In this document: piece after piece, positions 297-48,084 of the stretch
Layout of the letters: every line of letters starts with the position of its first letter
How positions within the stretch are numbered: position 1 is the stretch's first letter
Assembly (NCBI GenBank): GCA_964413095.1
Contig: CAYPRJ010000003.1
Location: 1 to 60,172, forward strand
Length of the DNA: 60,172 nucleotides
Source: Candidatus Woesearchaeota archaeon
GTDB lineage: Archaea; Nanobdellota; Nanobdellia; Pacearchaeales; GW2011-AR1
Reading direction: 5' to 3'
Position numbers and translations under genes: made by a program
Notes under the pieces: model-generated
Databases searched by the model: none
Seen by the model: only the letters and a program-made list of their open reading frames with translations
Told to the model about the DNA's origin: nothing

Positions 297-346
297 TTAC
301 TATAAAATCAAGTTACTTTTTTAAACACTTTTCCTTTTTTTAAATA

Positions 347-1072
347 ATGTATGAATTCATAGACAAAACATTATTCTTTCCTGAAAAGAGAATCCTTGCA
401 GTCGGAGATTTACATCTTGGCTATGAGTACCAGCTTCAACAATCAGGCATTTTATTGCCTGAAAATCAAGTTCAAGAAGTTATCTCTGAACTTAAAGAAA
501 CATTCAAACAAATAGAATCAAAAAAACAGAAAATAAAAAAAATAATTTTTATTGGAGACATAAAACACTCTTTTAGTTATGAATGGAAAGAGAAAAACTA
601 TTTTAATGAAGTTCTTGAATTTCTAAGACAAAAATTTGAAGACAAAAATATAATTTTAATAAAAGGCAATCATGACACAATAGATTATTCATTCAGCGAC
701 AAACTCCAAAATTATCATATAGAAGGAGATATAGCTTTCACTCACGGACACGAACCATTTCCAGAAATTTTTGGCAAAAAAATAAAAACAATAGTTATAG
801 GACACATCCATCCTTCAATTATTCTTTCAGACAAGCAAAATATCAAAAGAGAAAAATACAAATGTTTCTTAACAGGAAAATTCAAAAATAAAGAAATAAT
901 AATTTTGCCGAGTTTTTTAACAACAATAGAAGGCCAAACAATAAACAGCATCAGCGAAGAATACGAAGATTACTTCTCAATAATTCCAAAGAAATCATTG
1001 ATGAATTTCAGGGTTCATGTTGTTGGCAAAGACAAAGTTTATGATTTTGGTAAAGTCAAGGAGATTGATTAA
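347..1072 (+). CDS. Calcineurin-like metallophosphoesterase
   Basis: Motifs GDLHLG, IGD, KGNHD, THGH, GHIHP. Confidence 0.85.
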   Translation: MYEFIDKTLFFPEKRILAVGDLHLGYEYQLQQSGILLPENQVQEVISELKETFKQIESKKQKIKKIIFIGDIKHSFSYEWKEKNYFNEVLEFLRQKFEDKNIILIKGNHDTIDYSFSDKLQNYHIEGDIAFTHGHEPFPEIFGKKIKTIVIGHIHPSIILSDKQNIKREKYKCFLTGKFKNKEIIILPSFLTTIEGQTINSISEEYEDYFSIIPKKSLMNFRVHVVGKDKVYDFGKVKEID

Positions 1073-35795: not shown

Positions 35796-36704
35796 TTATT
35801 TTTTCATTTTTAATTTTATTTTATTATTTTCTTTTTCCAATTCTTCAAAATCTGATTCAATAATTAAATTCAACTCTCTGATATTTATTTTTGAAACAAA
35901 AACATTGCTTAGACTTAATGTTATTCCTTCTCCAATCCCTATTGATTCTAAATTAACTTCTTTTAAAAAATCATCATCAAGGTAAATCTTTACATTTGCA
36001 TTTTCTGATTTTTTTAATCCATTGTTTCTTATACTCATATTTATATCTAAATATCTTTTTTCAATTTTAGCATGCACATTCTCAAAAGACAAATCAGGCT
36101 GGCTTGGATAAGAATAAATTTCATTTAATAACTGCAGAGTATCTTCTCCAATAACCTGAGAACACTTAGTTACAGGATACATTATATTGTTAGGATTAGA
36201 AGAATGATTAAAACCAAGCACATGTAAAAGTTCATGTATTGCAACATTCGGTCTTTCGCATTTTACATCTCTTATTAATAAAATATTTCCATGAAAAATA
36301 ACATCAAACTTTTCTCCAGAAATTATTTTTGTAGGACCTCCCTCACCTGCAATAAACATTCCTCCTTCAATTTTATTTTTTTCATCACATGTTACAGAGA
36401 TTTCTTCATTTGAATTTATAGGATAAAATTCTAAAATAGTATCCTGAGAAATTATTTGAAAGGCTCTTTTCATATCATTCTTTTTTTGAAGAGAACAATC
36501 CTGATTAATTTTATAAGATATTGTTGAATTTGGAAATCTCATATTAGAATAAAATTGCATTTCTGTAGAATTATCTAAGGTAAAGTTAGAACTTGAAGGA
36601 GAACCCAAAAAAAACTCTGCATTATTAGGAATAAACCAATAAAAAATCAAAAGTGCTATTGCAATTAAGCTAAAAAAAGCACCAAGAACAACTTTCCACT
36701 CCAT
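35796..36704 (-). CDS. Matrixin-like zinc metalloprotease with C-terminal CARDB-like domain
   Basis: HELLHVLGFNH, Met-turn IMYP, N-terminal TM, IRNNG Ig-like domain. Confidence 0.88.
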   Translation of the reverse strand: MEWKVVLGAFFSLIAIALLIFYWFIPNNAEFFLGSPSSSNFTLDNSTEMQFYSNMRFPNSTISYKINQDCSLQKKNDMKRAFQIISQDTILEFYPINSNEEISVTCDEKNKIEGGMFIAGEGGPTKIISGEKFDVIFHGNILLIRDVKCERPNVAIHELLHVLGFNHSSNPNNIMYPVTKCSQVIGEDTLQLLNEIYSYPSQPDLSFENVHAKIEKRYLDINMSIRNNGLKKSENANVKIYLDDDFLKEVNLESIGIGEGITLSLSNVFVSKINIRELNLIIESDFEELEKENNKIKLKMKK

Positions 36705-36780
36705 ACGAATAAATTATTAATGGATTATATAAAACTATTTATTAAAAAATAAAAAATAAAAGAATAAGATTTTTACTCAA

Positions 36781-36972
36781 TTATTCAGATTGTTCATTAA
36801 CTTCTGAACTATCTGACTCTGAAGATTCTTGTAATGGTTCTCGTGGTTGAGGAGTGCTTTCCTCTTCTGTTTCTCCAGAAGGTTGGCTCTCTTCTTGTTC
36901 GGGTTGTTCTTGTGGTTGAACCTCTTCAGATTCCTCTTGAGTTTTTTCTGCGTTTTGAGTTTCGTCTTCCAT
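36781..36972 (-). CDS. Acidic disordered small protein
   Basis: 63-aa E/Q/S-rich ORF. Confidence 0.55.
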   Translation of the reverse strand: MEDETQNAEKTQEESEEVQPQEQPEQEESQPSGETEEESTPQPREPLQESSESDSSEVNEQSE

Positions 36973-37060
36973 TTGAAATAAAATTTTTAATTTATATTAA
37001 TTAGGCAAAATTCTCTTTTAAAGTTTTTGAATTCCAATAAACAGCATGAATTTTATTATA

Positions 37061-37076
37061 ATGAATCAAAACGCCC
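37061..37076. repeat. Direct repeat of the tRNA-Asp 3' end and trailer (partner 37729-37744)
   Basis: ATGAAT(C/A)AAAACGCCC, 15/16 identical. Confidence 0.55.
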
Positions 37077-37194
37077 TGAGCGAAAACTCTCCTCGACAAA
37101 ATTAGTGGTGTAATTTTGGATTTTAATTCTGTTGTTCTAAGATTTTTAAAGATTCTTAAGATAGATTTATTAAATTCTAATCTTATAAAAAGAG

Positions 37195-37509
37195 ATGTAT
37201 AAAGTTTATGTAATCAATTCTTTCAAAACTATATTAAATACATTATCCAGAGATGAACAAGAGAAAGTTAATAAGATATTTTTACAACTTAAAGAGAATC
37301 CTTATGTAGGAGATCAATTAAGGTACAGATTTTTTAGAGAAAAAAGAATAAAAGAAAAAAGAGTTTACTATTTAATTTATGATTATATCAAAATAGTTTT
37401 GATGGTTGGTATAAGCGACAAAAAAGCGCAACAAAGCACAATAAACCAAATTGTTAGATATTTTAAAGAATACAGAAAATATGCTGAAAATTTATCAAAA
37501 GAAGATTAA
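37195..37509 (+). CDS. RelE/ParE-like toxin
   Basis: L.ENPYVGDQL, REKRIKEKRVYY.I. Confidence 0.75.
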   Translation: MYKVYVINSFKTILNTLSRDEQEKVNKIFLQLKENPYVGDQLRYRFFREKRIKEKRVYYLIYDYIKIVLMVGISDKKAQQSTINQIVRYFKEYRKYAENLSKED

Positions 37510-37671
37510 TTAAGCAACTCTTTCAACCCTGCCTGCTTTTAAGTCATCAAGTCCTTCTTTAAATTGTCTTATTAAATCCCAGTCTACTTCTTTCACTCTC
37601 TCAAGCTCTTCAGCTTTTCTTTCAAGCTCCTCTAATCTTTCCTTTGATATTTTTACCATCTGTTTTTCCAT
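37510..37671 (-). CDS. RelB-like antitoxin (53 aa), convergent with the toxin
   Basis: MEKQMVKISKERLEEL...DWDLIRQFKEGLDDLKAGRVERVA; missed by the ORF track. Confidence 0.7.
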   Translation of the reverse strand: MEKQMVKISKERLEELERKAEELERVKEVDWDLIRQFKEGLDDLKAGRVERVA

Positions 37672-37739
37672 ATTTTTCACAGGTTTCTTAAATATTTAAG
37701 GTTTTTCTTTTTCTGAAAGTGTGTAATTATGAATAAAAA

Positions 37740-37983
37740 CGCCCACGCCGGGAATTGAACCCGGGTTATGTCCGTTCTGCACGAAAGGAGCCATTTACAT
37801 CCTCTTCACTGCGACTTCCCAGAGGCAATTTGAAATCGTCTTTCAGTGCCAAAAAGGAAGGTGTGTGCGAGTGATTTCGCAAACCTATTTTTCGCCCTTT
37901 ATTGTGAGCGAAGTCAGGAGTTAAGGAAACCAAGGTTTCCTTCATGCGACAGGGACATGTCTTAGCCACTGGACCACGTAGGC
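37740..37983 (-). tRNA. tRNA-Asp(GTC) with 172-nt BHB intron (37775-37946)
   Basis: GCCTACG/CGTGGGC-G73; TGTCC-CT-GTC-G|intron|C-GGACA; BHB central helix CUGU/GCAG with two 3-nt bulges. Confidence 0.92.
37813..37938. repeat. Dispersed structured element, copy 2, inside the tRNA-Asp intron
   Basis: Colinear blocks shared with 21149-21250. Confidence 0.85.
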
Positions 37984-38037
37984 ATAGAATATACTACAAG
38001 AAATTATTTTTAAACTTTACTAAAGCAGATTATTAAT

Positions 38038-38154
38038 CTACTTTTTCTTTTTTTTAAGTGCAGCTTTGCAAACAGCCCAAGGATTAACCTTTTTTCTCTT
38101 TCCTTTATTTTTTCTCTTAACTTTCTTAACACACTTATCTAGTTTCTTCGGCAT
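38038..38154 (-). CDS. 38-aa basic micro-protein (MPKKLDKCVKKV...NPWAVCKAALKKKKK)
   Basis: Clean ATG-to-TAG frame directly after the upstream gene. Confidence 0.7.
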   Translation of the reverse strand: MPKKLDKCVKKVKRKNKGKRKKVNPWAVCKAALKKKKK

Positions 38155-38162
38155 TTTCACTT

Positions 38163-38435
38163 CTATTTATTTTTTCTTCTGTTTTTGCGTATAACATAAA
38201 TGAAATATATAACTAAAGTCAATGCAAACAAATAATTAACAATATAAAATACAGGAGATAATGAAGGAGTTATTACCTGAGCGCAAATCTCAGAAGTTTT
38301 TCCGAAAGGATTAAAAAAATTTGGAGTGCATGAATCTGGCCAGGAAACTTCGACAAAAGACAAAACTAACAGCACAGCTAACTCTACAAATAATATCACA
38401 ATAAATATTTTATTTTTGTTTTTCATTACATCCAC
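38163..38435 (-). CDS. Small two-TM protein
   Basis: Two hydrophobic segments around a C..C loop; start may be MKNKNK. Confidence 0.65.
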   Translation of the reverse strand: MDVMKNKNKIFIVILFVELAVLLVLSFVEVSWPDSCTPNFFNPFGKTSEICAQVITPSLSPVFYIVNYLFALTLVIYFIYVIRKNRRKNK

Positions 38436-38610
38436 AGCGAGGATACCACTGCTTTAAAGCAGGAAGGAATCGCCGTCCTCAAAATTTAATTCTGTTAATA
38501 AAGTAAAATCATACTGGTTATAACCAACTACTTTAGTTCTTCTCAACCCTGGGTTTGTTAGTTTTAACATTTTATTATTGATACCTCGCACTTTAGCGCG
38601 GGGTCATTCA
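38436..38610 (-). mobile_element. Non-autonomous IS200/IS605-type miniature element (palindromic ends)
   Basis: Ends TGAATGACCCCGCGCTAAAGTGCGAGGT and GGCGATTCCTTCCTGCTTTAAAGCAGTGGTATCCTCGC resemble the TAAAG-loop subterminal hairpins of this superfamily; no ORF. Confidence 0.6.
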
Positions 38611-38612
38611 TT

Positions 38613-39905
38613 TTAATTTTTTCTCTTCTTGCTCTTAACTTCAATTTTCTTTTTTCCATTCATATATTTTTGAAGAACTTTTGGAATTTTTACACTGTTG
38701 TCTTTTTGCTGATAATTCTCAAGAATAGCAACCATAATTCTTGAAGTTGCAATAGCTGTATTATTTAAGGTGTGCAAAACATATCTTTCTCCTTTTTTGC
38801 CAATTCCTTTAATATTCAAATCTCTTGCCTGATAATCTGTGCAATTACTCAAAGATGTAACTTCTCCAAAATCTTTTGTTGTAGGTCTGTAAACTTCAAT
38901 ATCCTCGCTTTTAGATTTCCAGTCCCCTAAATCTCCACTGCATGATTCAATAATTCTATAAGGCAGTCCTAATTTTTTCATAATCTCTTCTGAATTTCTT
39001 TTCAATTCATCATAATATTTCCAAGAGTCTTCTGGTTTGCAAAAAACAAACTGCTCAACTTTGTTAAATTGATGTGTTCTCCAAAGTCCCTTCTCATTAA
39101 TTCCATGAGAGCCAATTTCTTTTCTAAAACACATCGAGTAGCCAAAAAACTTCAAGGGCAAATTTTCTTCTTTTATTGTTTGTTCAGAAAGCATTCCTAA
39201 AATTGTATCCTCAGCAGTTGGAATCAAATACAAATTTTCTTTTTCAATTTTATACAAGGCATTTTTAAAACCTTCAAAATCACCTTTTGCTTTTGCTATT
39301 TCTTCTTTAATCATTAATGGAGGTTCAATATATTTGTATTTCTTTTTCTCCATAAAATCAATAGCAAAATTAATTAATGCCCTATTTAACAAAGCCAAAT
39401 CTCCCTTCAAATAATAAAAACCATTTCCAGAAGTTTTTGCAGACTCGTCAAAATTACCCAATCCTAAATTTTCCATAATCTCAACATGATTTTTAACAGG
39501 AAAGCTGAACTTAGGAATTTTCCCTGCTTTTTTCCCCACAACATTATCTTTTTCATCTTTTCCTTCCGGAACACTTTCATGCATTAAATTAGGAATTTCA
39601 TAAAGCTTCTCTTTAAGTTTTTCATAAATCTTTTTTTCTTTGTCTTCTGATTTTTTTATTTCTTCTGGGATTTTCTTTGCTTTTTTTATTAAAGAAGAAA
39701 CATTTTTTCCTTTCTTTTTTTCTTCATTAATTCTCTTAGATATAGAGTTTCTCTCAGCTCTTAGTTTGTCTGTTTTTAATTTTATTTTTCTCCAATCCTC
39801 GTCTATTTTCAAAACTTTTTTGACAATTAAACTGTCTTTATTCCTTTTTTTAATATCTTTAATATAAGTTTCAGGTCTTTCTCTCAAATCCTTAATATCA
39901 ATCAT
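38613..39905 (-). CDS. serS: Serine--tRNA ligase
   Basis: MIDIK, N-terminal coiled coil, IPN, PTAE, FRKEIG.HG, R.HQF.KVEQF, SNCTDYQAR, HTLNNTAIA. Confidence 0.98.
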   Translation of the reverse strand: MIDIKDLRERPETYIKDIKKRNKDSLIVKKVLKIDEDWRKIKLKTDKLRAERNSISKRINEEKKKGKNVSSLIKKAKKIPEEIKKSEDKEKKIYEKLKEKLYEIPNLMHESVPEGKDEKDNVVGKKAGKIPKFSFPVKNHVEIMENLGLGNFDESAKTSGNGFYYLKGDLALLNRALINFAIDFMEKKKYKYIEPPLMIKEEIAKAKGDFEGFKNALYKIEKENLYLIPTAEDTILGMLSEQTIKEENLPLKFFGYSMCFRKEIGSHGINEKGLWRTHQFNKVEQFVFCKPEDSWKYYDELKRNSEEIMKKLGLPYRIIESCSGDLGDWKSKSEDIEVYRPTTKDFGEVTSLSNCTDYQARDLNIKGIGKKGERYVLHTLNNTAIATSRIMVAILENYQQKDNSVKIPKVLQKYMNGKKKIEVKSKKRKN

Positions 39906-39987
39906 AACAACTAAAAGAGAATATTGTATTTAAATTTAATGAAACCAAAAAATGAAAATTTATAAATACTGTTTTCTAAATTAATGT

Positions 39988-40665
39988 ATGTTAGAGGTGA
40001 GCAATTTTACTTCAAGTATTATAGAAGGTTATGAAACAGTAATGGCTTCATTGCCGCCTTTCACAAGGAATTTTATCAATCTTTTTCTTTTAGTAGTGTT
40101 AGTTGTCATTTATGCTATTTTTATCTGGAAGTTTTACAGGTTTATTGCACAGAAAAATATTCTTGGTCTTGACCTTAACAAATATAATAAAACTTCACGT
40201 CCGCTTTTAACAAAAATTTTTGCAGGAGGACTTTATTTTCTTGAATATGTTTTAATTTTGCCGATTATAATTTTTATAGGATTTGGTGTATTTACTTTAT
40301 TTTTAATTTTTTTAAATGAAGGTTTAGAAACTCAAACAATCTTAATAATTTCTGCTACAATAGTTGCTGCAATAAGAATGACTGCTTATTATAAAGAAGA
40401 TTTATCAAAAGAACTTGCAAAAATTCTGCCTTTTATGTTGCTGGCTGTTTCTCTTCTAAATCCTGAATTTTTTAATTTCGAAAGAATCTTAGGAAACATA
40501 AGTCAAATTCCTGGTCTTTTAAATAATATTTTTTATTATCTGGTTTTTATAATTGTCATTGAAGTAATCTTAAGATTATTTGATTTTGCATTTTCTCTCT
40601 TTGGATTGCAAGAAGAAACAGAAGAAGAGGAAAAAACTAAAGAAGAATCTAAGAGTGGAAGTTAA
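39988..40665 (+). CDS. Multi-pass membrane hypothetical protein
   Basis: About 5 TM segments. Confidence 0.75.
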   Translation: MLEVSNFTSSIIEGYETVMASLPPFTRNFINLFLLVVLVVIYAIFIWKFYRFIAQKNILGLDLNKYNKTSRPLLTKIFAGGLYFLEYVLILPIIIFIGFGVFTLFLIFLNEGLETQTILIISATIVAAIRMTAYYKEDLSKELAKILPFMLLAVSLLNPEFFNFERILGNISQIPGLLNNIFYYLVFIIVIEVILRLFDFAFSLFGLQEETEEEEKTKEESKSGS

Positions 40666-40690
40666 TTTTGTATAATTTTATTTAATAAAA

Positions 40691-40906
40691 ATGGGGAAGA
40701 TTAGAGAATTGTCTGCAAGGAAAGTTATCAAAATACTAAAAAAATTTGGGTTTGAATATTTAAGAACCGGAAGACACGATATATATTATAATAAAGAAAA
40801 GAACAAGAAAATTCCTGTTCCAGTAAGTCATGGGATTATAACAAGAGGAGTTATTAAATCTTTAATTAGACAAACAGGAATACCAAGAGAAGAATTTTTT
40901 GATTAA
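40691..40906 (+). CDS. hicA: HicA-like mRNA interferase toxin
   Basis: KVIKILKKFGF...GRH......IPVP. Confidence 0.82.
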   Translation: MGKIRELSARKVIKILKKFGFEYLRTGRHDIYYNKEKNKKIPVPVSHGIITRGVIKSLIRQTGIPREEFFD

Positions 40907-41190
40907 AGGAATATTCTAGTAATCATTGGAGCAGTTTCTTCCTTAGTTTCTATAAGCTCCTTTTGTGTTTCTTCAGAATTTTCCAACACGATTTCTGCTG
41001 CGTCTTTAACATTCTCAAGAGCCTCTTCTAAAGATAATCCTTGCGAAGCTACATCTATTTGAATGCCTTGAGCAACAAAAAAAGTTCTGTTATCTATTTT
41101 TTCCTGAGTTATAATTACATCTAAAATAATCTTCCCATCATTAAGCTTACATTTCTTTTTCATTTTAGAATTCACTTCCTCATCCAACAT
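40903..41190 (-). CDS. hicB: HicB-like antitoxin (partial RNase H fold), convergent
   Basis: VASQG.SLEEALENVKDA. Confidence 0.82.
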   Translation of the reverse strand: MLDEEVNSKMKKKCKLNDGKIILDVIITQEKIDNRTFFVAQGIQIDVASQGLSLEEALENVKDAAEIVLENSEETQKELIETKEETAPMITRIFL

Positions 41191-41229
41191 AATTAAACAT
41201 ATACATATATGTTTATAAATATTTCCAAA

Positions 41230-41394
41230 TTATCTCCTTGTTAAATTAATCAAAAATTCAGCAAGATTAAAGTTATCACAAGACTTAAAAGAATGAGGGG
41301 TATTTTTCATGATTTTAAAATTTGTTTCATGATAATCTCCTCCACAATTTGGACATCTTGTTACAATTTCACTTGCAAGTCTAACGAGATTCAT
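41230..41394 (-). CDS. Possible 54-aa protein with CPNCG motif
   Basis: ATG-to-TAA frame below the track cutoff. Confidence 0.35.
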   Translation of the reverse strand: MNLVRLASEIVTRCPNCGGDYHETNFKIMKNTPHSFKSCDNFNLAEFLINLTRR

Positions 41395-41420
41395 AGTCAA
41401 ATAAAGATATTTTTCTTTAT

Positions 41421-41441
41421 AAAATTATTTAATTAGTTTTT
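41421..41441. repeat. 21-bp exact direct repeat flanking the thermonuclease gene (partner 42279-42299)
   Basis: AAAATTATTTAATTAGTTTTT at both positions. Confidence 0.7.
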
Positions 41442-41465
41442 CTAAGAAGAAACAAACAAAGTGGA

Positions 41466-42221
41466 TTAAAGTAAACTTTCACAAGCTATTCCGTCTTTAT
41501 CTCCGTCTAACCAATGAACATCATTATCTGTCCCGCCGCAGGTTTCAAAAACTTCTTGTGCTTCTTCTTGACTTGAGAAATCCCCGCAATTATAAACATT
41601 AGTGCTACATACATATTCTTTTTCTAAGGGAGCAGTTTCAGTTTTTTCAATGTCCCAAATTCCGAGATTATCTTTTTCAGCTAATTTTTCGGCATTTTCA
41701 ATCTGAGGGCATAATCTCGTGCTTTGTCCGTAAGGATAAGCAACACCATATCCTAATCTAACTATTTTTTCGTTGACAAATTCTCCTTCAGAATAGATAT
41801 ATCTCAATAATCTACCATATTTATCTCTTTCAGTAACATCCTTGACTAGTTTTACTTCTTCATTCAAAATAAAATCTGAAAGAAAATCCTTTGCTTCTTT
41901 GTATCCTTTTTCTCCGGTTTCAGGAGTATTAACACAAATTAATCTTACTCTTTCGCCATTTTCAATTTCAATAGTGTCTCCATCAATAACCCTTGTAACT
42001 AAAAAATATCCCTCTTGAATTGATTCTCCTGATATATCTGATTTTTCCGAAATCTCTACTTGATTTTCTTCTTGATTATTAATTGCATGTCCTGTAATAT
42101 CATTTTCATTTATAATATTAGAATCAGAAGAATTATTTCCGTTTGCAATTAATCCAATAATAATTATAACTAAAACTCCAATAATAAAATAAGGAATAGT
42201 CTGTTTGTTTAATCTTTTCAT
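41466..42221 (-). CDS. Thermonuclease (SNase) with C-terminal Excalibur Ca-binding domain
   Basis: [30 protein letters not shown]...[11 protein letters not shown]. Confidence 0.92.
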
Positions 42222-42331
42222 GGATATTTTAGGGATTATATGTTTTTATTATTTTCTAAAACCAAAATCAAGATTCCTAAAATTATTTAATTAGTTTTTT
42301 CTTCGGTTTTCCCAATAAAAATTCTTATTAT

Positions 42332-43039
42332 TTAATCTTTTCTTTTGTTTACAATCAAAATCAGCAAAATTAGAACTAAAATTAATGCCATACTAGAAAA
42401 TAAAAATATCTGGAAAGAAGGAACTTTAGATTGCAATTTCTTTCCTTCTAACTCATCACCAGTATCACATAAAGTTCTCTCAATTGGTTTATCATAACTA
42501 ACATCACAATAATTTGTATCATAACACTCTCTTGTCATAACTTCATTAGCACTAACACAAGAACTCCATCCTGAACATTCCCAATTCGGACGACAAAACT
42601 CCCCTCTTACTAATTCTTTATCTCCATCATCATTATCGTCTTTTTCTTCCTCGTCTTCTTCCTGGTCATCTTCATCTTCTGTATCCTCTGTATCATTCAC
42701 TGGAGGAGTTGGTTGTTCAATATTTATTATAAAATCTAACCTTGTTACTTCAAATTCCTTAAATGTATAATTTCCAAGATTTTCATTATTAAAATAAAAT
42801 TTAATTAAACCCCCATATTCTGATTCTATGATTAAATTATATTCTCCATCTAAAATTACAGTACTCCCAACTATATTTTCATTGATTTTTGTTATTATTT
42901 CTCCAGTATTAACTTTTTCTCCGTTAGAATAATTTACCTCTCCGTAAAATGCATGCGGAAAAGAAATAGCAGATACAGAATTAATTAAAAAAATCAAGGT
43001 AACTATTAAAATTATAATTAAAGATTTTTTATTTAACAT
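42332..43039 (-). CDS. Secreted membrane-anchored surface protein with Cys-rich repeat
   Basis: Signal peptide, PHAFYGEV domain, acidic linker, C.PNWEC.GWS.C repeat, C-terminal TM. Confidence 0.75.
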   Translation of the reverse strand: MLNKKSLIIILIVTLIFLINSVSAISFPHAFYGEVNYSNGEKVNTGEIITKINENIVGSTVILDGEYNLIIESEYGGLIKFYFNNENLGNYTFKEFEVTRLDFIINIEQPTPPVNDTEDTEDEDDQEEDEEEKDDNDDGDKELVRGEFCRPNWECSGWSSCVSANEVMTRECYDTNYCDVSYDKPIERTLCDTGDELEGKKLQSKVPSFQIFLFSSMALILVLILLILIVNKRKD

Positions 43040-43763
43040 TTTTAGGTGATTTCTTTTTTATTAATATCACCCCTATTCCTACAATAGCAATAAATGCAAC
43101 CAAAACACCAATTCCTGTCCCAGATTTAACAAAGTCAAGTATTGCTGAACCTGTTAAAGGAGCATTTTCTTGAGAAGTTAATTCATCTTGATTTTCATTA
43201 TCTTCTTGATTAGAATCTGTATTTACACTGCTTCCAGTTAAACTTCCTCCAGAATCACCAGAAGAACTTGAAGATAAACTGCTGGAACCACTGCCAGAAG
43301 AACCTCCTCCTGAACTTCCACCTCCACCTGAAGAACCCCCAGAACTTCCTCCAGAAGAACCCCCTGAAGAACTGTCAGAATCTCCATCACTACTTTCAGA
43401 ATCAGAAGAAGTTTGATTTGGATTAGGATTTTCTAAATCTGTTGTGAAATTCAGTTCAGTAACTTCAAAAGAAATAAATTCAGAACTTCCAATTGATTCT
43501 GACAAACCTTCAATGTAAAACTCAATTGTTCCTTCTCCACTTTCAGATTCAACTACTAAGTCATATGCTCCCTCATCAAGAATTGATGTGAAATTATTAT
43601 CATTAAATTCAGCTCTTATCTCCAAACTCTCTTGTATTGGAGTTCCATCAGAATAAAAAACATATCCGTGAAATCCATGGGGAGTTGTAGGAGATTGCGC
43701 AAGAATGAGACTAGTTAGAAAAATTAAAGTTAAAAACGTAAAGATGATAAATGATTTTCTCAT
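43029..43763 (-). CDS. Secreted membrane-anchored surface protein with Gly/Ser linker
   Basis: PHGFHGYV domain related to its neighbour, SSGG repeats, C-terminal TM. Confidence 0.75.
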   Translation of the reverse strand: MRKSFIIFTFLTLIFLTSLILAQSPTTPHGFHGYVFYSDGTPIQESLEIRAEFNDNNFTSILDEGAYDLVVESESGEGTIEFYIEGLSESIGSSEFISFEVTELNFTTDLENPNPNQTSSDSESSDGDSDSSSGGSSGGSSGGSSGGGGSSGGGSSGSGSSSLSSSSSGDSGGSLTGSSVNTDSNQEDNENQDELTSQENAPLTGSAILDFVKSGTGIGVLVAFIAIVGIGVILIKKKSPKNVK

Positions 43764-43866
43764 ATTTTTCTAATGAAAATTGTCTTTAAAAGTATTGTTA
43801 TCTTTCAGAGATTATGTTAAAAAATAAAAAAAGAAAGAAAAAGAAAAAATAAAAATTAAAATTGGA

Positions 43867-45927
43867 TTAAAGTTTGTATTCGTAGTAGTCTAGGTTGCTA
43901 TTATATGGCTCTGTCATTGATAACCAGTAAGATTTTCCTGATTCTAAATCATCTTCACTAACACTTTTAAGGTTTCCATCTAGAATACTCTTATATAGTT
44001 TATAGCCTTCTGTAGATTCTAAACTTTCTAGAGATTTATTTGCATCTTCATATCCAAATATACCTACTAAATTGTATCCTCTATTTGAAAGTTTAATTAC
44101 CGGCATCCAAGGAATTTCTGAACTCTCACTCTCTGGATCATCTCGCGTTACTCCTCCTCGCGCATTTCCATATAATACATCATCATCTTTCATAAATACA
44201 ATGTAACCATACCCTGGAGTAATCTCTTGTAATGATCCACTACTCCATCCACAAGAACTACTTACTGTTTTGTAAATCCACTTGTTTTCATCTGTAGATT
44301 CATCATATTGGTATGACCAAACTTTATCAATGTTACATTTTACTCCTTCTAACACCTCCTGGTAATCGGTGCTTTCAGGAACAAAAGGAATTGATATCAT
44401 ATTAACTTTGTCTTTGTAAAGCGGAATCATCCAATCTGGTTTTTCTGCATTTACTACAACCATCGTAGTTTCGCTTGCAATATTTCCAGTTTTATCTTGT
44501 ACTCTTAACTCAACAGTATATTCTCCTTCTTCATCATATAAATGTGTCTCATTTACAATCGCTGACATATTGTGTTCTCCAGCAAAAGTTCCTGTGACAT
44601 TTTCATCATCTCCAAAATAAAGAGTATAGTTAGATAATGCTCTATCATCAGATACATTTGCTGTTATTACAACATCTTCACCAACAAGTCCGAAATAAGG
44701 TTCATTCATGAATTCTATCGTTGGATCTGTTGTGTCGGGAGTACATTCTGGGTCAAAGCACCATGGGTCGAAATCAACATCTCCGTCAGTTAATGCTTCA
44801 ATATCGTCGTAGGTTGTAACACCCCACCAGTTGTATGTTGCGTTTGTAATAAATGAATTATCATTTCTTACTGCTGGAGATTCATCCCCAAGAAAGCTGT
44901 TTCTATTTACAGTAATAGAATCCTTCCAAAGCTCTACAACTGCGTAGCCAATGTTGGAAGCTGAGAACTCGTTGTTTCTAATTTCGCTGTTTTCTGCTTC
45001 TGTTCCTAATACAAGATTGTTGTCCACAGTTCCTGTGAATGTATTATTGATGAAGTTAACATTGTCTGATCCTGTAGAAGTTGGAATACTTACATCTCCA
45101 TTAACATAGACCATCCGTAGCACATTATCTCCTATTAATGTATTATTCTCGAATAAAACATTTGTCTGTTCTGTCTCAGTAAGTATAACATACTTTCCAT
45201 CAGTAGCAGAATTAAGTACATTGTCTTTAATTTCTATATTATCGTTAGAGGTCTGAAGAAGAATTGCTGAATGTTCTGCAGCATTAATTGTAAATCCTTT
45301 CAATATTACATCATCACTAGTGACAGTAACCGCACCCGAGTATCCTGTATCTTGACCATTTATAGTCGTGGAACCAGGACCATCTACCGAAGTTAGAGTT
45401 ATATCTTTGTTTATCGTTACATCTTCTTCATAAACTCCAGCAGGAACTGTTACTGTACCAGTTGTATCTTCATTAATCGCATTTTGGATTGTTTGAACAG
45501 TTACTGGTACAAGATTTGTAACCTGAGAAACTCCATCAGAAGTTTTAACACTCCAATTATAATCTCCAAAATCAGTAGACTCTGAAGTTACAGAAAATGT
45601 TTGAGATTCTCCTGTCTCAATATCTTCTCCAGCATTAGCATCAAAAATACAAGAGGTAGAAGATTCTGTAACATCCCAGCCAGAAAGTTCTTCACAACTA
45701 ATTCCTGAAAAATCACCTGGTTTTTGAACTATTACTGTCATAATAGAATCTCCTCCAGTGTTTTCCACAGTGAACTCTAAATCTACGCTACCTAATGTAA
45801 GCCATCCGCTTGGACTCACTTCAACACTTGAACTATGAGTAGCACTAACACCACCAATCATCATGAACATCAAACCTGTCATTACTAGTAAACTTAAAAT
45901 TGTTTTTTGTTTATTCATATTTTTCAT
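43867..45927 (-). CDS. Large secreted surface protein (beta-helix + PKD-like)
   Basis: Signal peptide, TIQNAIN..V.VPAG.Y.E, parallel beta-helix, NATYNWWG, PKD-like Y...G.YTV.L.V.D. Confidence 0.8.
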   Translation of the reverse strand: MKNMNKQKTILSLLVMTGLMFMMIGGVSATHSSSVEVSPSGWLTLGSVDLEFTVENTGGDSIMTVIVQKPGDFSGISCEELSGWDVTESSTSCIFDANAGEDIETGESQTFSVTSESTDFGDYNWSVKTSDGVSQVTNLVPVTVQTIQNAINEDTTGTVTVPAGVYEEDVTINKDITLTSVDGPGSTTINGQDTGYSGAVTVTSDDVILKGFTINAAEHSAILLQTSNDNIEIKDNVLNSATDGKYVILTETEQTNVLFENNTLIGDNVLRMVYVNGDVSIPTSTGSDNVNFINNTFTGTVDNNLVLGTEAENSEIRNNEFSASNIGYAVVELWKDSITVNRNSFLGDESPAVRNDNSFITNATYNWWGVTTYDDIEALTDGDVDFDPWCFDPECTPDTTDPTIEFMNEPYFGLVGEDVVITANVSDDRALSNYTLYFGDDENVTGTFAGEHNMSAIVNETHLYDEEGEYTVELRVQDKTGNIASETTMVVVNAEKPDWMIPLYKDKVNMISIPFVPESTDYQEVLEGVKCNIDKVWSYQYDESTDENKWIYKTVSSSCGWSSGSLQEITPGYGYIVFMKDDDVLYGNARGGVTRDDPESESSEIPWMPVIKLSNRGYNLVGIFGYEDANKSLESLESTEGYKLYKSILDGNLKSVSEDDLESGKSYWLSMTEPYNSNLDYYEYKL

Positions 45928-45933
45928 ATTCGT

Positions 45934-46212
45934 TTATTTTAAACCTCCTTTCAGCTCTGTTTCTAAATCATCTGCGAGACAGACTAAGCTGTTATACTCA
46001 TCTAATTTGTTATATGTATAACTATGATATGTATAACCATGAATTAATGAAAAAGTTTGTGAAGCTTGTGAAGATTTGTGAAATGAAGAATAAGAACAAG
46101 GATTAGAGTGATAATAAGAATGTAATAATGAGTGTTGGAATAAGAGCGAGGATGATAAAAGATGAGAACAAATTGAAGTGTTTGAAGAATTAATTAAATC
46201 TTTTCTTGACAT
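45934..46212 (-). CDS. Ser/His/Tyr-rich ORF, or an untranslated leader
   Basis: Open frame after a TATA-like box; its end contains the GGAGG SD of the next gene. Confidence 0.35.
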   Translation of the reverse strand: MSRKDLINSSNTSICSHLLSSSLLFQHSLLHSYYHSNPCSYSSFHKSSQASQTFSLIHGYTYHSYTYNKLDEYNSLVCLADDLETELKGGLK

Positions 46213-46246
46213 ACTCTTTTCAGTTTAATTTTATTTAAAAACATTA

Positions 46247-46290
46247 TTATCCTCGAGAAATAGGTTTTTGTTGTTATTTGAGGTGGTGAA
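46247..46290. repeat. Junction repeat R, copy 1 (others: 47365-47380 partial, 48243-48286, 48886-48928, 49827-49867)
   Basis: Consensus TTATCCTCGAGAAAATACTTTTTGTTGTTATTTGAGGTGGTGAA. Confidence 0.85.
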
Positions 46291-46318
46291 AATTTTGCAA
46301 AAACCCCATGTTACCATA

Positions 46319-46378
46319 ATGAAATCTTCTAAAAATAGAAAGATTGTAATTTATATTGATGGAAGCAAATTATCTTGA
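46319..46378 (+). pseudogene. N-terminal remnant of a NYN-domain-like gene
   Basis: MKSSKNRKIVIYIDGSK then stop; tandem GATGGAAGCAAAT duplication. Confidence 0.4.
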
Positions 46379-46680
46379 TGGAAGCAAATCTTCTTGAAAA
46401 AAATAGAAATGTTTTTAAAATTGACTATATTATAAATAACATGAATAAAAAAGTTTGTATTAATATTATAATAGAAAAAGAAAAACAAGATTCAAATGTC
46501 TTTTTTGTAGCTTCAAGTCCCAACATAAATGTTTTTGCAGAAGGAAAAAATATTGACGAAGTAAGAAGTAAATTCATTGAAGGAGTTAAACATCACTTTG
46601 AAACTTTTCCAGAAGAAAGAGAATTACTCATCAAAAAAGAAAAATGCGAAAGACCATTAATTCAAAGAATTTTTCTATAA
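46375..46680 (+). CDS. hicB: HicB-like antitoxin
   Basis: FFVASSPNINVFAEGKNIDEV...F.EG; start may be MNKKV. Confidence 0.75.
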   Translation: MMEANLLEKNRNVFKIDYIINNMNKKVCINIIIEKEKQDSNVFFVASSPNINVFAEGKNIDEVRSKFIEGVKHHFETFPEERELLIKKEKCERPLIQRIFL

Positions 46681-46884
46681 TTAATAAAATTCTTCCTTAG
46701 GTATTCCTGTAAAACGGGATATTTTATTGAAAACGCCGATTGTTGTCAAGGGCAACACAACTGTTATGTGAATTTCTCCATTAGATAAAGAAACATGACT
46801 GCCCCTTCTACTTTTAATCTCATAACCATTCTTTATCAAAACCTTGATTATGTTCTGACCTTTCACCACTTTTGGAGTTTTCAT
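46681..46884 (-). CDS. hicA: HicA-like toxin, convergent
   Basis: IIKVLIKNGY...RRGSHV.L...ITV.LP. Confidence 0.8.
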   Translation of the reverse strand: MKTPKVVKGQNIIKVLIKNGYEIKSRRGSHVSLSNGEIHITVVLPLTTIGVFNKISRFTGIPKEEFY

Positions 46885-46935
46885 TTATCTATTGATATTA
46901 TTTTATTTAAAAATATTTTATTATAAATTATATAA

Positions 46936-47214
46936 TTAAAAGTTTATTTCAGATTGTAAATTAAAAGAATTATTACCCTTTAAAGAATATCTTACAAAAC
47001 TCTTTTCCTGAAATCTGAACCAGCTTGGCCATTCTTGTTTTCGTTTGCTTAAATTAAATATTTTATATCCTGTAAGTTCATTTGTCTCTTTGCTTCGTCC
47101 TTCAAATAAGTCATCATCTATTTCATTATAATAAGAAGGTACAGGGTCTCCTATAAAAATCTCCAAAAGATCTGTTTCAGGACTGTAATTTATTTCTATT
47201 TTTTTATTTATCAT
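46936..47214 (-). CDS. DUF2283-like antitoxin, chimeric copy
   Basis: INYSPETDLLEIFIG; nearly identical to 48944-49180 up to KQEW, then unrelated. Confidence 0.7.
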   Translation of the reverse strand: MINKKIEINYSPETDLLEIFIGDPVPSYYNEIDDDLFEGRSKETNELTGYKIFNLSKRKQEWPSWFRFQEKSFVRYSLKGNNSFNLQSEINF

Positions 47215-47334
47215 TTTTTCTTAATGTGCTGAGTGTAAAATGATGTAATTACAAAACCCTCGCCATTTAAATGTTCTTTGTCAGCTTTATTTTTCTCCTT
47301 GTTTTATCTTTAACTTCAAAAATAATATCATCAT
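47212..47334 (-). pseudogene. Internally deleted copy of the toxin-like gene at 49500-49796
   Basis: 5' IIFEVKDKTRRKIKLTK fused directly to 3' HLNGEGFVITSFYTQHIKK. Confidence 0.75.
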
Positions 47335-47379
47335 TAATTAATCAAAAGAACAAGCTATAAAAAATTATCGTCGAGAAAA

Positions 47380-47736
47380 TTATTCACAACTTGCAATTAA
47401 CGGACTGGTATATTCAGACTTTCTTAATGGAGGCAGTTGAACTCTTATCTTTTTCCCATCTTTTTCAAAAACAAGAACAATGAACCAATTATTTCTGTAA
47501 TTCTTATATTCTATTAAAACATTTTCAACAGATTCTAATAAAGATTTTGTAATAATTTTATTCAAAGCAGAAAAAAATTCACTTGCATAAAATATTTCCA
47601 GTCCAACAATACCCCTGTCTTTGTCAATATCTATATTCAAAAATTCAGAAAATTCAACTGTTTCATTTGGTTTATGCTCATCATCATAAACAGTGAATAC
47701 ATCATCTTCTTCATTATAATGTATTTTTATTCCCAT
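47380..47736 (-). CDS. DUF2283-like protein
   Basis: IHYNEEDDV, IDIDKDRGIVGLEIF.AS. Confidence 0.8.
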   Translation of the reverse strand: MGIKIHYNEEDDVFTVYDDEHKPNETVEFSEFLNIDIDKDRGIVGLEIFYASEFFSALNKIITKSLLESVENVLIEYKNYRNNWFIVLVFEKDGKKIRVQLPPLRKSEYTSPLIASCE

Positions 47737-47751
47737 AGTTATTATAACAAA

Positions 47752-48084
47752 TTATACTTTTTTAAACTTTCTCTTATAATTTTTTAGTGTTTGTCTCCCA
47801 ATTGAATAAACTGTGATTATTCTTATTTTCTCAGTAAATTTCAAGACATAAACTCTGCCGGTTTTTGAACTGTAGACAAAATATAACTTATATCTGGTTT
47901 CTCCTTGCTCTTTTTGTTTATCAACAAATTCAACACATTCATAATTAAGTATTTCTTTCTCCATCTCTTCTTTAGAACAGCCATTTCTGAATTCAAGATA
48001 ATCTATGGGCTTCCCCCATTCAAAACCTTTTTCTTTATATTTTTCAATTAATATTCTCAGTTCCTCAAAATAATTTTTAGCCAT
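47752..48084 (-). CDS. DUF4258/BrnT-like toxin candidate
   Basis: RYKLYF.YS, IRIITVY at C terminus; upstream of a DUF2283-like gene. Confidence 0.55.
   Translation of the reverse strand: MAKNYFEELRILIEKYKEKGFEWGKPIDYLEFRNGCSKEEMEKEILNYECVEFVDKQKEQGETRYKLYFVYSSKTGRVYVLKFTEKIRIITVYSIGRQTLKNYKRKFKKV

Follow-up and report, generated by a model that had tools for sequence, protein, structure and literature searches.

How can the ratio between a toxin and its antidote be maintained when the two genes are transcribed towards each other instead of being strung together behind one promoter? This question is raised by a stretch of 60,172 nucleotides (hereafter "the window") from Candidatus Woesearchaeota archaeon (contig CAYPRJ010000003.1), which corresponds to contig C3 of a 770-kb genome of 88 % completeness, has a G+C content of 28–30 % and holds three convergent pairs of toxin-antitoxin type, namely a gene for a RelE-like protein with its small partner, hicA1 with hicB1 and hicB2 with hicA2. 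The three tail-to-tail pairs had been claimed in a sequence-only reading of this DNA and are indeed there: all six open reading frames (ORFs) are present, the RelE-like gene and its partner meeting without gap at the junction TAATTA, hicA1 and hicB1 overlapping by 4 nt (TTAA) and the stop codons of hicB2 and hicA2 directly adjoining (gap 0).

Each of these pairs belongs to a subfamily whose genes are fixed tail-to-tail and that has so far been found only in DPANN archaea, the relatives being labeled Nanoarchaeota, Woesearchaeota or Pacearchaeota. To judge from their sequences, all three pairs are cassettes of toxin-antitoxin type, ~0.5–0.65 kb in size, that encode proteins of known families and are placed in unrelated genomic surroundings. 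The interpretation to which we incline, though not strongly, is that they are conserved convergent cassettes in which each gene is separately promoted and the two are coupled negatively through their head-on layout. Co-transcription from one promoter is part both of the working definition of such systems and of the pipelines that search for them, and it is this operon rule that is consistently broken by the convergent cassettes, i.e., by a RelE family occurring in about a quarter of the sampled genomes of the phylum and by two smaller HicAB clades.

Conservation of the convergent layout

The related loci amount to ~170 for the RelE family and to ~15 for both HicAB clades together. The RelE family, which counts about 2,400 database relatives, is convergent at 17/17 loci in 61 related genomes and at all 77 testable loci in metagenomes, the remaining three of these 80 loci ending at a contig edge. 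Across the convergent subfamilies the stop codons adjoin or overlap, typically by 4 nt and at most by 33 nt; the overlaps of the metagenomic RelE-family loci measure 4 nt (n=26), 18 nt (n=12), 27 nt (n=23) or 33 nt (n=5) and, wherever the ORFs overlap, one and the same stretch of bases, read on opposite strands, supplies the terminal codons of the two proteins.

In a census of the phylum, carried out on an even sample of about 300 high-quality genomes with the coordinates of toxin and partner matched by hand, the RelE-like toxin was found in 74 genomes and 79 of the 90 determinable pairs were convergent, 11 being co-directional with the toxin first; a further 19 were left unassigned. In the co-directional cases checked in sequence, the partner is only 35–45 amino acids (aa) long and consists of the C-terminal helix alone. 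Loci L150, L151, L152, L155 and L156 represent a co-directional, toxin-first sister group of the RelE family, and inversion of the downstream gene of this group would yield the convergent form. A search of IMG/VR viruses returned no RelE-type locus and one weak HicB-like locus only.

As to the HicAB clades, 9 of the 11 species-representative genomes endowed with an hicB1 orthologue have hicA1 on the opposite strand immediately downstream, with a 4-nt overlap at eight of these nine loci, and the genes flanking hicAB1 in the window (SerRS, a membrane protein, a Zn-ribbon protein and a nuclease) are missing at the other hicAB1 loci. A convergent hicA2 is present in the window, at locus L016 and in four of the five contigs looked up (6/7 including the window); this gene is absent from the recorded gene calls in three of the four contigs (L146, L147, L148) in which tblastn finds it and, among the copies on public contigs, one has an in-frame stop and another is apparently truncated at its N-terminus. 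That convergence exceeds chance, on which the sequence-only reading depended, is borne out by the frequencies given above for the RelE partner and for hicAB1, found at loci with differing flanking genes. Because these flanking genes differ between loci, the cassettes are best described, on sequence grounds, as mobile two-gene units.

How far does this design extend? In the 61 related genomes, 16 hicB–hicA pairs form ordinary co-directional operons as opposed to five convergent pairs in four genomes, two of which are the window's own; when nine GTDB loci are added to these five, the convergent total becomes 14. Phylum-wide, the orientation of 64 hicBA pairs could be determined and is co-directional in 61; of the three convergent pairs two are again those of the window, and the ordinary DPANN hicBA pairs have the antitoxin first. 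Furthermore, the same genomes contain co-directional RelE/ParE operons with antitoxins of the ribbon-helix-helix (RHH) or Phd type, and both the PIN pair and the BrnT-like/DUF2283 pair of the window are co-directional. The "lineage-specific design" proposed in the earlier reading survives inasmuch as the layout is conserved within subfamilies and fails inasmuch as it is not lineage-wide. Orientation clusters strongly on the trees of HicA and HicB (0/500 shuffles gave a value as low) and requires 3–4 changes, a single origin of the convergent orientation on these trees being possible. Because the same genomes hold co-directional operons and orientation clusters on the trees, the convergent layout characterizes certain cassette subfamilies.

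Identity and pairing of the encoded proteins

The HicA assignment holds for both genes, the scores of hicA1 (49.3 bits) and hicA2 (28.4 bits) lying above the PF07927 cut-off of 27 bits. The two toxins share 35 % identity and have kept the Gly-x-His motif, as GRH in hicA1 and GSH in hicA2; in an alignment of 15 HicA sequences the His (His29), catalytic in HicA toxins, is invariant (15/15) and the Gly (Gly27) is conserved in at least 90 %. Their partners, hicB1 and hicB2, are paralogues with 31 % identity, the former having 80 homologues (45–79 % identity) that are mostly 86 aa long. From the length of the homologues hicB1 probably starts at 41163 (86 aa), and the start of hicB2 is placed at 46441 (79 aa), since its homologues measure 78–80 aa.

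A Pfam scan of the two HicB-like proteins of the window gave no match to HicB (PF15919, HicB_lk_antitox) or UPF0150 (PF21748) at E<=0.1, and their identity rests on profile comparisons in place of a fold search. The profile of the HicB-like family retrieves small proteins in relatives' genomes that lie in operons with strong HicA matches, five of ten such operon-borne proteins being above the PF15919 cut-off; aligned by hhalign with a DPANN set that includes Pfam-verified HicB, the family scores 97.7 % (E 1.4e-12), and its best solved relative in a profile search of the PDB is TTHA1756 (E 1.3e-3). These profile-profile comparisons place the HicB-like proteins in the HicB family by homology of the core domain. 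The remark that they have no DNA-binding domain is also confirmed: at 79–86 aa they consist of the HicB core and a tail predicted to be disordered, and no such domain was found. The C-terminal tail is not peculiar to the convergent forms, being present also in co-directional HicB proteins (L017, L018 and three phylum-wide matches).

The RelE-like protein was modeled by AlphaFold2 (AF2) with high confidence (predicted local distance difference test, pLDDT, 94.9) and has two additional C-terminal helices. All 26 PDB entries matched by Foldseek at E<=0.001 are toxins of the RelE/ParE superfamily (RelE, HigB2, ParE2, YoeB, PfiT), the best being RelE toxins (9g12_B, E 2e-5; 4fxe_E; 1wmi_A, the archaeal aRelE, TMt 0.79), so that the modeled fold is that of RelE/ParE. 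The Pfam ParE_toxin profile (PF05016) does not match the protein of the window; 7 of 14 homologues match it weakly, all below the cut-off (best E 1.2e-4), and precomputed matches to PF05016 exist for some database homologues. Basic and Tyr residues are conserved in the family at R48 E49 K50, K55 R56, Y58, Y62 and K76 K77.

The partner family has in common a C-terminal helix (…DxDLxxQxKxSLEDxKxGRI…) and occurs in two versions: the long form, represented by 4 of 14 aligned homologues, adds an AbrB/MazE domain at the N-terminus (PF04014, E 2e-9), and the short form, to which the copy of the window belongs, does without this domain. The RelBE name given in the sequence-only reading is justified for its RelE half by the confident fold and not for its RelB half, there being no RelB or RHH match and the family being of AbrB/MazE type. 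Among the 77 convergent RelE partners 45 carry an AbrB domain, which rules out the absence of a DNA-binding domain as the cause of the convergent layout. An orphan fragment resembling the C-terminal helix of the partner (IDDNIVDKIKRSLEDIKAGRIK) occurs in the same genome at C6:18829-18921 (-), with no RelE-like gene beside it.

Do the neighbors belong together? The RelE-like toxin and the C-terminal helix of its partner co-diverge (Mantel r=0.65, 0/1000 permutations as high); sister relations (L003+L014, L006+L009) are mirrored in the HicA and HicB trees; adjacency is strict across unrelated genomic contexts; and a natural fusion exists, a 178-aa protein (L153, G147:C14:16300-17400, ORF 343-879 (-)) in which a RelE-like domain is joined to the helix motif of the partner (…LLKKLVRGLEDVKAGRIKPFK). 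Frequently the toxin is decayed and the partner intact (L004, L041, L056/L061, L148), and in-frame stops are found in about a quarter of 110 phylum-wide RelE-like matches. Of the traits of type II systems the pairs have neighboring genes for a toxin and an antitoxin protein and lack the tandem arrangement on one strand, all three being convergent (3/3).

Promoters, proposed head-on transcription and rival explanations

The premise that the two genes of a pair have independent promoters is supported. When the upstream sequences of RelE-like genes (62 distinct ones) were aligned at the start codon, 68 TATA-like hexamers fell in the −30..−26 bin as compared to at most 9 in any other (consensus aAAnAtTTAaAAA), and for the RelE partners the peak lies at −35..−26 with 81 hexamer matches as compared to at most 10 elsewhere. 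In the hicAB2 clade a TATA box is found at about −32..−22 in 7/7 hicB2-type and 5/5 hicA2-type loci. In the RelE family and in the hicAB2 clade a separate TATA box precedes either gene, one at each outer end of the cassette. The A/T-rich stretch upstream of hicA1 is not conserved in position within its clade and in its place several orthologues show a leader of GAGG type. The gene upstream is divergent at 10/13 hicB and 5/14 hicA loci, so that at those loci read-through from a neighbor cannot supply the transcript.

Between the TATA box and the ATG of the partner, mostly 14–17 nt upstream of the latter, there is a candidate operator consisting of the direct repeat C[T/C]TAC-N3-C[T/C]TAC, which is present at 34/41 long-form (AbrB) loci (L065, L069, L071 and 31 other metagenome loci) and at 1/24 short-form loci (Fisher 1.8e-10, not corrected for relatedness). 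Both half-sites are changed jointly to CCTAC at two loci, and the repeat was not found elsewhere in the loci, the toxin promoter included. This distribution suggests that the repeat may be a self-repression site of the antitoxin gene only, in the AbrB-type loci.

These features can be assembled into a mechanism. The small protein would neutralize the toxin by direct binding and, where it has an AbrB domain, would repress its own promoter alone. Because there is no intergenic room for a terminator, the 3′ end of a full-length toxin transcript would be complementary to that of a full-length antitoxin transcript, at least over the overlap, and polymerases starting from the two outer promoters would meet head-on. 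Negative coupling of the two genes would be the outcome, acting on transcription or on RNA by way of polymerase collision, of antisense pairing or of the two combined, and would take the place of the translational coupling and the shared autoregulation of an operon; such control of the toxin:antitoxin ratio, already invoked in the sequence-only reading, would follow from the geometry alone. A more far-reaching version, which we offer tentatively and hold to be rather doubtful, is that the layout is a working design evolved repeatedly in DPANN archaea and joining type II to type I logic: besides neutralization of the toxin by a protein, full-length toxin mRNA would be suppressed in cis, through collision of polymerases and antisense pairing, by transcription of the antitoxin gene and by the 3′ end of its mRNA. 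If this were true, shut-off of the antitoxin promoter would directly raise toxin synthesis, and the toxin would be activated without a shared operator or conditional cooperativity. In any event, the cassettes constitute a natural experiment in balancing toxin and antitoxin without an operon, and their separate promoters, the operator on the antitoxin side only and the forced 3′ overlap provide concrete hypotheses on head-on transcription as a means of control in archaea.

Several data weigh against negative coupling between cognate genes. Toxicity and neutralization are what homology alone leads us to infer; the AF2 model of the HicB-like protein (four strands followed by helices) is only moderately confident (pLDDT 68.6) and this moderate model found no Foldseek match in the PDB at E<=0.001; co-divergence within the nine-member hicAB1 clade is not significant (Mantel r=0.13); and the RelE partner of the window has neither the AbrB domain nor the candidate operator. 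Spacers of 46–134 nt in some members indicate that the overlap is not obligatory, and the distance from the stop codon to the first downstream run of five T residues is indistinguishable from the genome background and therefore cannot be used to size the 3′ overlap. Finally, a search of sequencing runs for the sequence of the window retrieved only DNA runs of a microbial-mat metagenome and no RNA run.

The main rival to negative coupling is a frozen accident, i.e., one small inversion per subfamily that was kept because the toxin is inseparable from its antidote, the abutment of the genes being due to compaction and having no regulatory role. We regard this as unlikely, though by no means to be dismissed, for orientation is clade-specific with one origin per clade possible, co-directional sisters exist (toxin-first in the RelE family, antitoxin-first in hicBA), the spacers just mentioned make the overlap dispensable and DPANN genomes are very compact. 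What a mere accident does not readily accommodate is the occurrence of the same layout in two unrelated toxin families, with 3–4 changes of orientation in the HicAB trees, the fact that none of more than 90 loci (77/77 + 17/17) has reverted, the acquisition by both genes of positioned promoters of their own and the growth of the overlaps to as much as 33 nt. An invertible segment undergoing phase variation was also considered and rejected: no inverted repeats surround either single gene, and the inverted matches found are A/T-rich promoter boxes, such as those at 46906–46918 and 46407–46419, which form an inverted repeat (13 nt, 92 % complementary).

Could the neighbors not be cognate at all, the small proteins being independent regulators or antidotes to something else and the toxins orphan or inactive? 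The failure of the HicB-like and RelE-partner proteins of the window to give a significant Pfam match would fit this explanation, as would the frequent decay of the toxin copies (L004, L041, L148 and about a quarter of the phylum-wide RelE matches). However, decayed toxins alongside retained antitoxins are typical of toxin-antitoxin loci, and the strict adjacency in unrelated contexts, the homology of the HicB-like family to HicB encoded in operons with HicA, the AbrB/MazE antitoxin domain of the long-form partners, the co-divergence of toxin and partner and their natural fusion make non-cognate neighbors very improbable. An artefact, be it a chance ORF in each pair or an orientation produced by an assembly error, can hardly be entertained. 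The ORFs are admittedly short (53–104 aa) and public gene callers overlooked hicA2 in three of four contigs; nevertheless, protein-level conservation of both partners extends over about 90 independent assemblies and, in the phylum sample, over 74 of 301 genomes, chance ORFs stay short in a genome of 28 % G+C, and half of the words sampled from 39900–42300 around the second pair are present in DNA run X2, all of them in X1, a run of the same study that may be the source sample. The comparative data already contradict the artefact.

Known systems and genomic surroundings

The proteins are of known kinds, HicAB-type and AbrB-RelE-type, and it is their arrangement that differs from the known ones. 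With the type II HicAB systems (bacterial hicAB; the stand-alone HicB/UPF0150 proteins such as T. thermophilus TTHA1756, PDB 2yzt) the cassettes share the Gly-x-His of HicA, the HicB/UPF0150 core and the tight adjacency, whereas in place of the single operon of canonical hicAB the genes are convergent with adjoining or overlapping stops, and in place of the canonical long HicB there is a protein with no RHH or helix-turn-helix (HTH) DNA-binding domain and with a conserved ...P(M/L)xxR(I/V)FL tail. With the AbrB-RelE/RelBE modules (E. coli RelBE, 4FXE; M. tuberculosis RelBE1, 9G12; P. horikoshii aRelBE, 1WMI) the similarities are the RelE fold, the AbrB/MazE domain of the long-form partners, the multiple copies, the patchy distribution and the frequent decay of the toxin. 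The differences are the convergent layout with a 3′ overlap of up to 33 nt, the two additional C-terminal helices of the toxin, the conserved promoter that the toxin has of its own and, in the window, the loss of the AbrB domain by the partner.

Genes convergent on opposite strands, giving transcripts that would be complementary at their 3′ ends, are otherwise a trait of type I systems, among which are txpA/RatA, bsrG/SR4 and E. faecalis par. In B. subtilis yonT/SR6 the antisense RNA is convergent and 3′-overlapping (PMC5848175). Whereas the type I antidote is a non-coding RNA, the antidote gene here codes for a conserved protein that falls in a known antitoxin family, and the toxins are of RNase type and not small membrane peptides; RNA–RNA control would here be putative. 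A scan of 36000–48500 gave no match to an Rfam RNA family. Restriction-modification systems such as EcoRI and Eco29kI use convergent or antisense promoters as a control (review PMC12707154, section 12) and resemble the cassettes in being two-protein addiction modules in which the ratio of the harmful to the protective component is set in part by head-on transcription and antisense RNA; their proteins and targets are unrelated, and the effect has been measured in Eco29kI (PMC12707154), whereas here it would be expected from the layout.

Why such pairs could have escaped attention may be understood from the way in which toxin-antitoxin systems are searched for. The AbrB-RelE pairing was listed in the comparative survey of Makarova et al. 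2009, which gathered co-directed neighbors only and, being limited to these, could not have found convergent pairs (PMC2701414). In TADB 3.0 types II–VII are described as genes placed in tandem on the same strand, and its TAfinder includes a module for operon structure (PMC10767807). A full-text search of the literature, subscription-only papers not being covered, brought up no account of protein toxin-antitoxin pairs conserved in convergent orientation. Standard finders would miss them, with the consequence that censuses of DPANN toxin-antitoxin systems under-count convergent pairs and mislabel their genes as orphans.

The features of the window are collected in Table 1.

Table 1. Coordinates of the genes, TATA-like elements and repeats of the three convergent cassettes
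Feature	Position	Strand	Evidence
RelE-fold toxin gene, 104 aa	37195..37509	+	ORF; AF2 model; Foldseek; weak ParE_toxin matches among homologues
53-aa antitoxin-like partner, short form of AbrB-type family, C-terminal helix kept (D.DLIRQFKEGLDDLKAGRV)	37510..37671	-	ORF; alignment
hicA1, HicA toxin gene, 71 aa	40691..40906	+	PF07927 match
hicB1, HicB-fold antitoxin-like gene without DNA-binding domain	40903..41190	-	homologues; hhalign; PDB profile match
hicB2, hicB1 paralogue, frame open from 46375	46441..46680	+	homologue lengths
hicA2, HicA toxin gene, 67 aa, GSH motif	46681..46884	-	PF07927 match; convergent orthologues
TATA-like box (TTTATTAAA), 21-29 nt before RelE-like start codon	37166..37174	+	sequence; family-wide peak
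TATA-like box (TTAAATATTT, minus strand), 19-28 nt before partner ATG	37690..37699	-	sequence; family-wide peak
A/T-rich, TATA-like stretch before hicA1, weakly supported	40660..40678	+	sequence
TATA-like box (TTTATAAA), 22-29 nt before 41190 ATG of hicB1	41212..41219	-	sequence
TATA box region (TTTTTAAA), 22-34 nt before hicB2 start 46441	46407..46419	+	TATA box in 7/7 hicB2-type loci
TATA box region upstream of hicA2	46906..46918	-	TATA box in 5/5 hicA2-type loci
Left copy of 28-nt direct repeat (core GGGCGTTTTGATTCAT, minus strand) bounding RelE cassette	37049..37076		repeat search, 79 % identical to 37717-37744
Right copy of direct repeat, equal to 3′ end of tRNA-Asp(GTC) plus trailer	37717..37744		repeat search; sequence

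The RelE cassette is flanked by the repeat sequence GGGCGTTTT[T/G]ATTCAT, either copy of which reproduces the 3′ end and trailer of a tRNA-Asp(GTC) with a long intron that was read by eye on the minus strand at about 37985–37741, having been overlooked by ARAGORN and Rfam. The ~640 bp between the two copies contain the toxin-antitoxin pair only and no integrase, and in sequence the cassette looks like a site-specific insertion at the end of tRNA-Asp. Insertion next to a tRNA is not a general rule, a tRNA gene being found in the flanks of only 5/60 loci by ARAGORN, which misses intron-bearing tRNAs.

Upstream of hicB1 and on the same strand lies an ORF for a 56-aa Zn-ribbon-like protein, 41230–41400 (-), that is not kept beside hicB1 elsewhere, followed by a gene for a 251-aa protein, 41466–42221 (-), which from its sequence alone we take to be a staphylococcal-nuclease-like secreted nuclease and which is not conserved beside hicB1 in other genomes. 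Cassettes of the hicAB2 type (L145 1865-2281 (-); flanks of L146 and L148) are found among toxin-antitoxin and defence genes (HEPN/MNT, Fic, HepT), and in one contig the position of hicA2 is occupied by the gene of an IS200-type Y1 transposase. Beside the convergent pairs of the window there are a weak BrnT-like ORF, 47752–48084 (-), upstream of the DUF2283 gene, 47380–47736 (-), and a third small ORF, 46936–47214 (-), between the latter and hicA2. A 44-nt repeat is present in four copies (46247–46290, 48243–48286, 48885–48928 and 49827–49870) between small toxin-antitoxin-like modules, in a layout whose sequence organization resembles a cassette array, and the hicAB2 cassette starts directly after the first of these copies.

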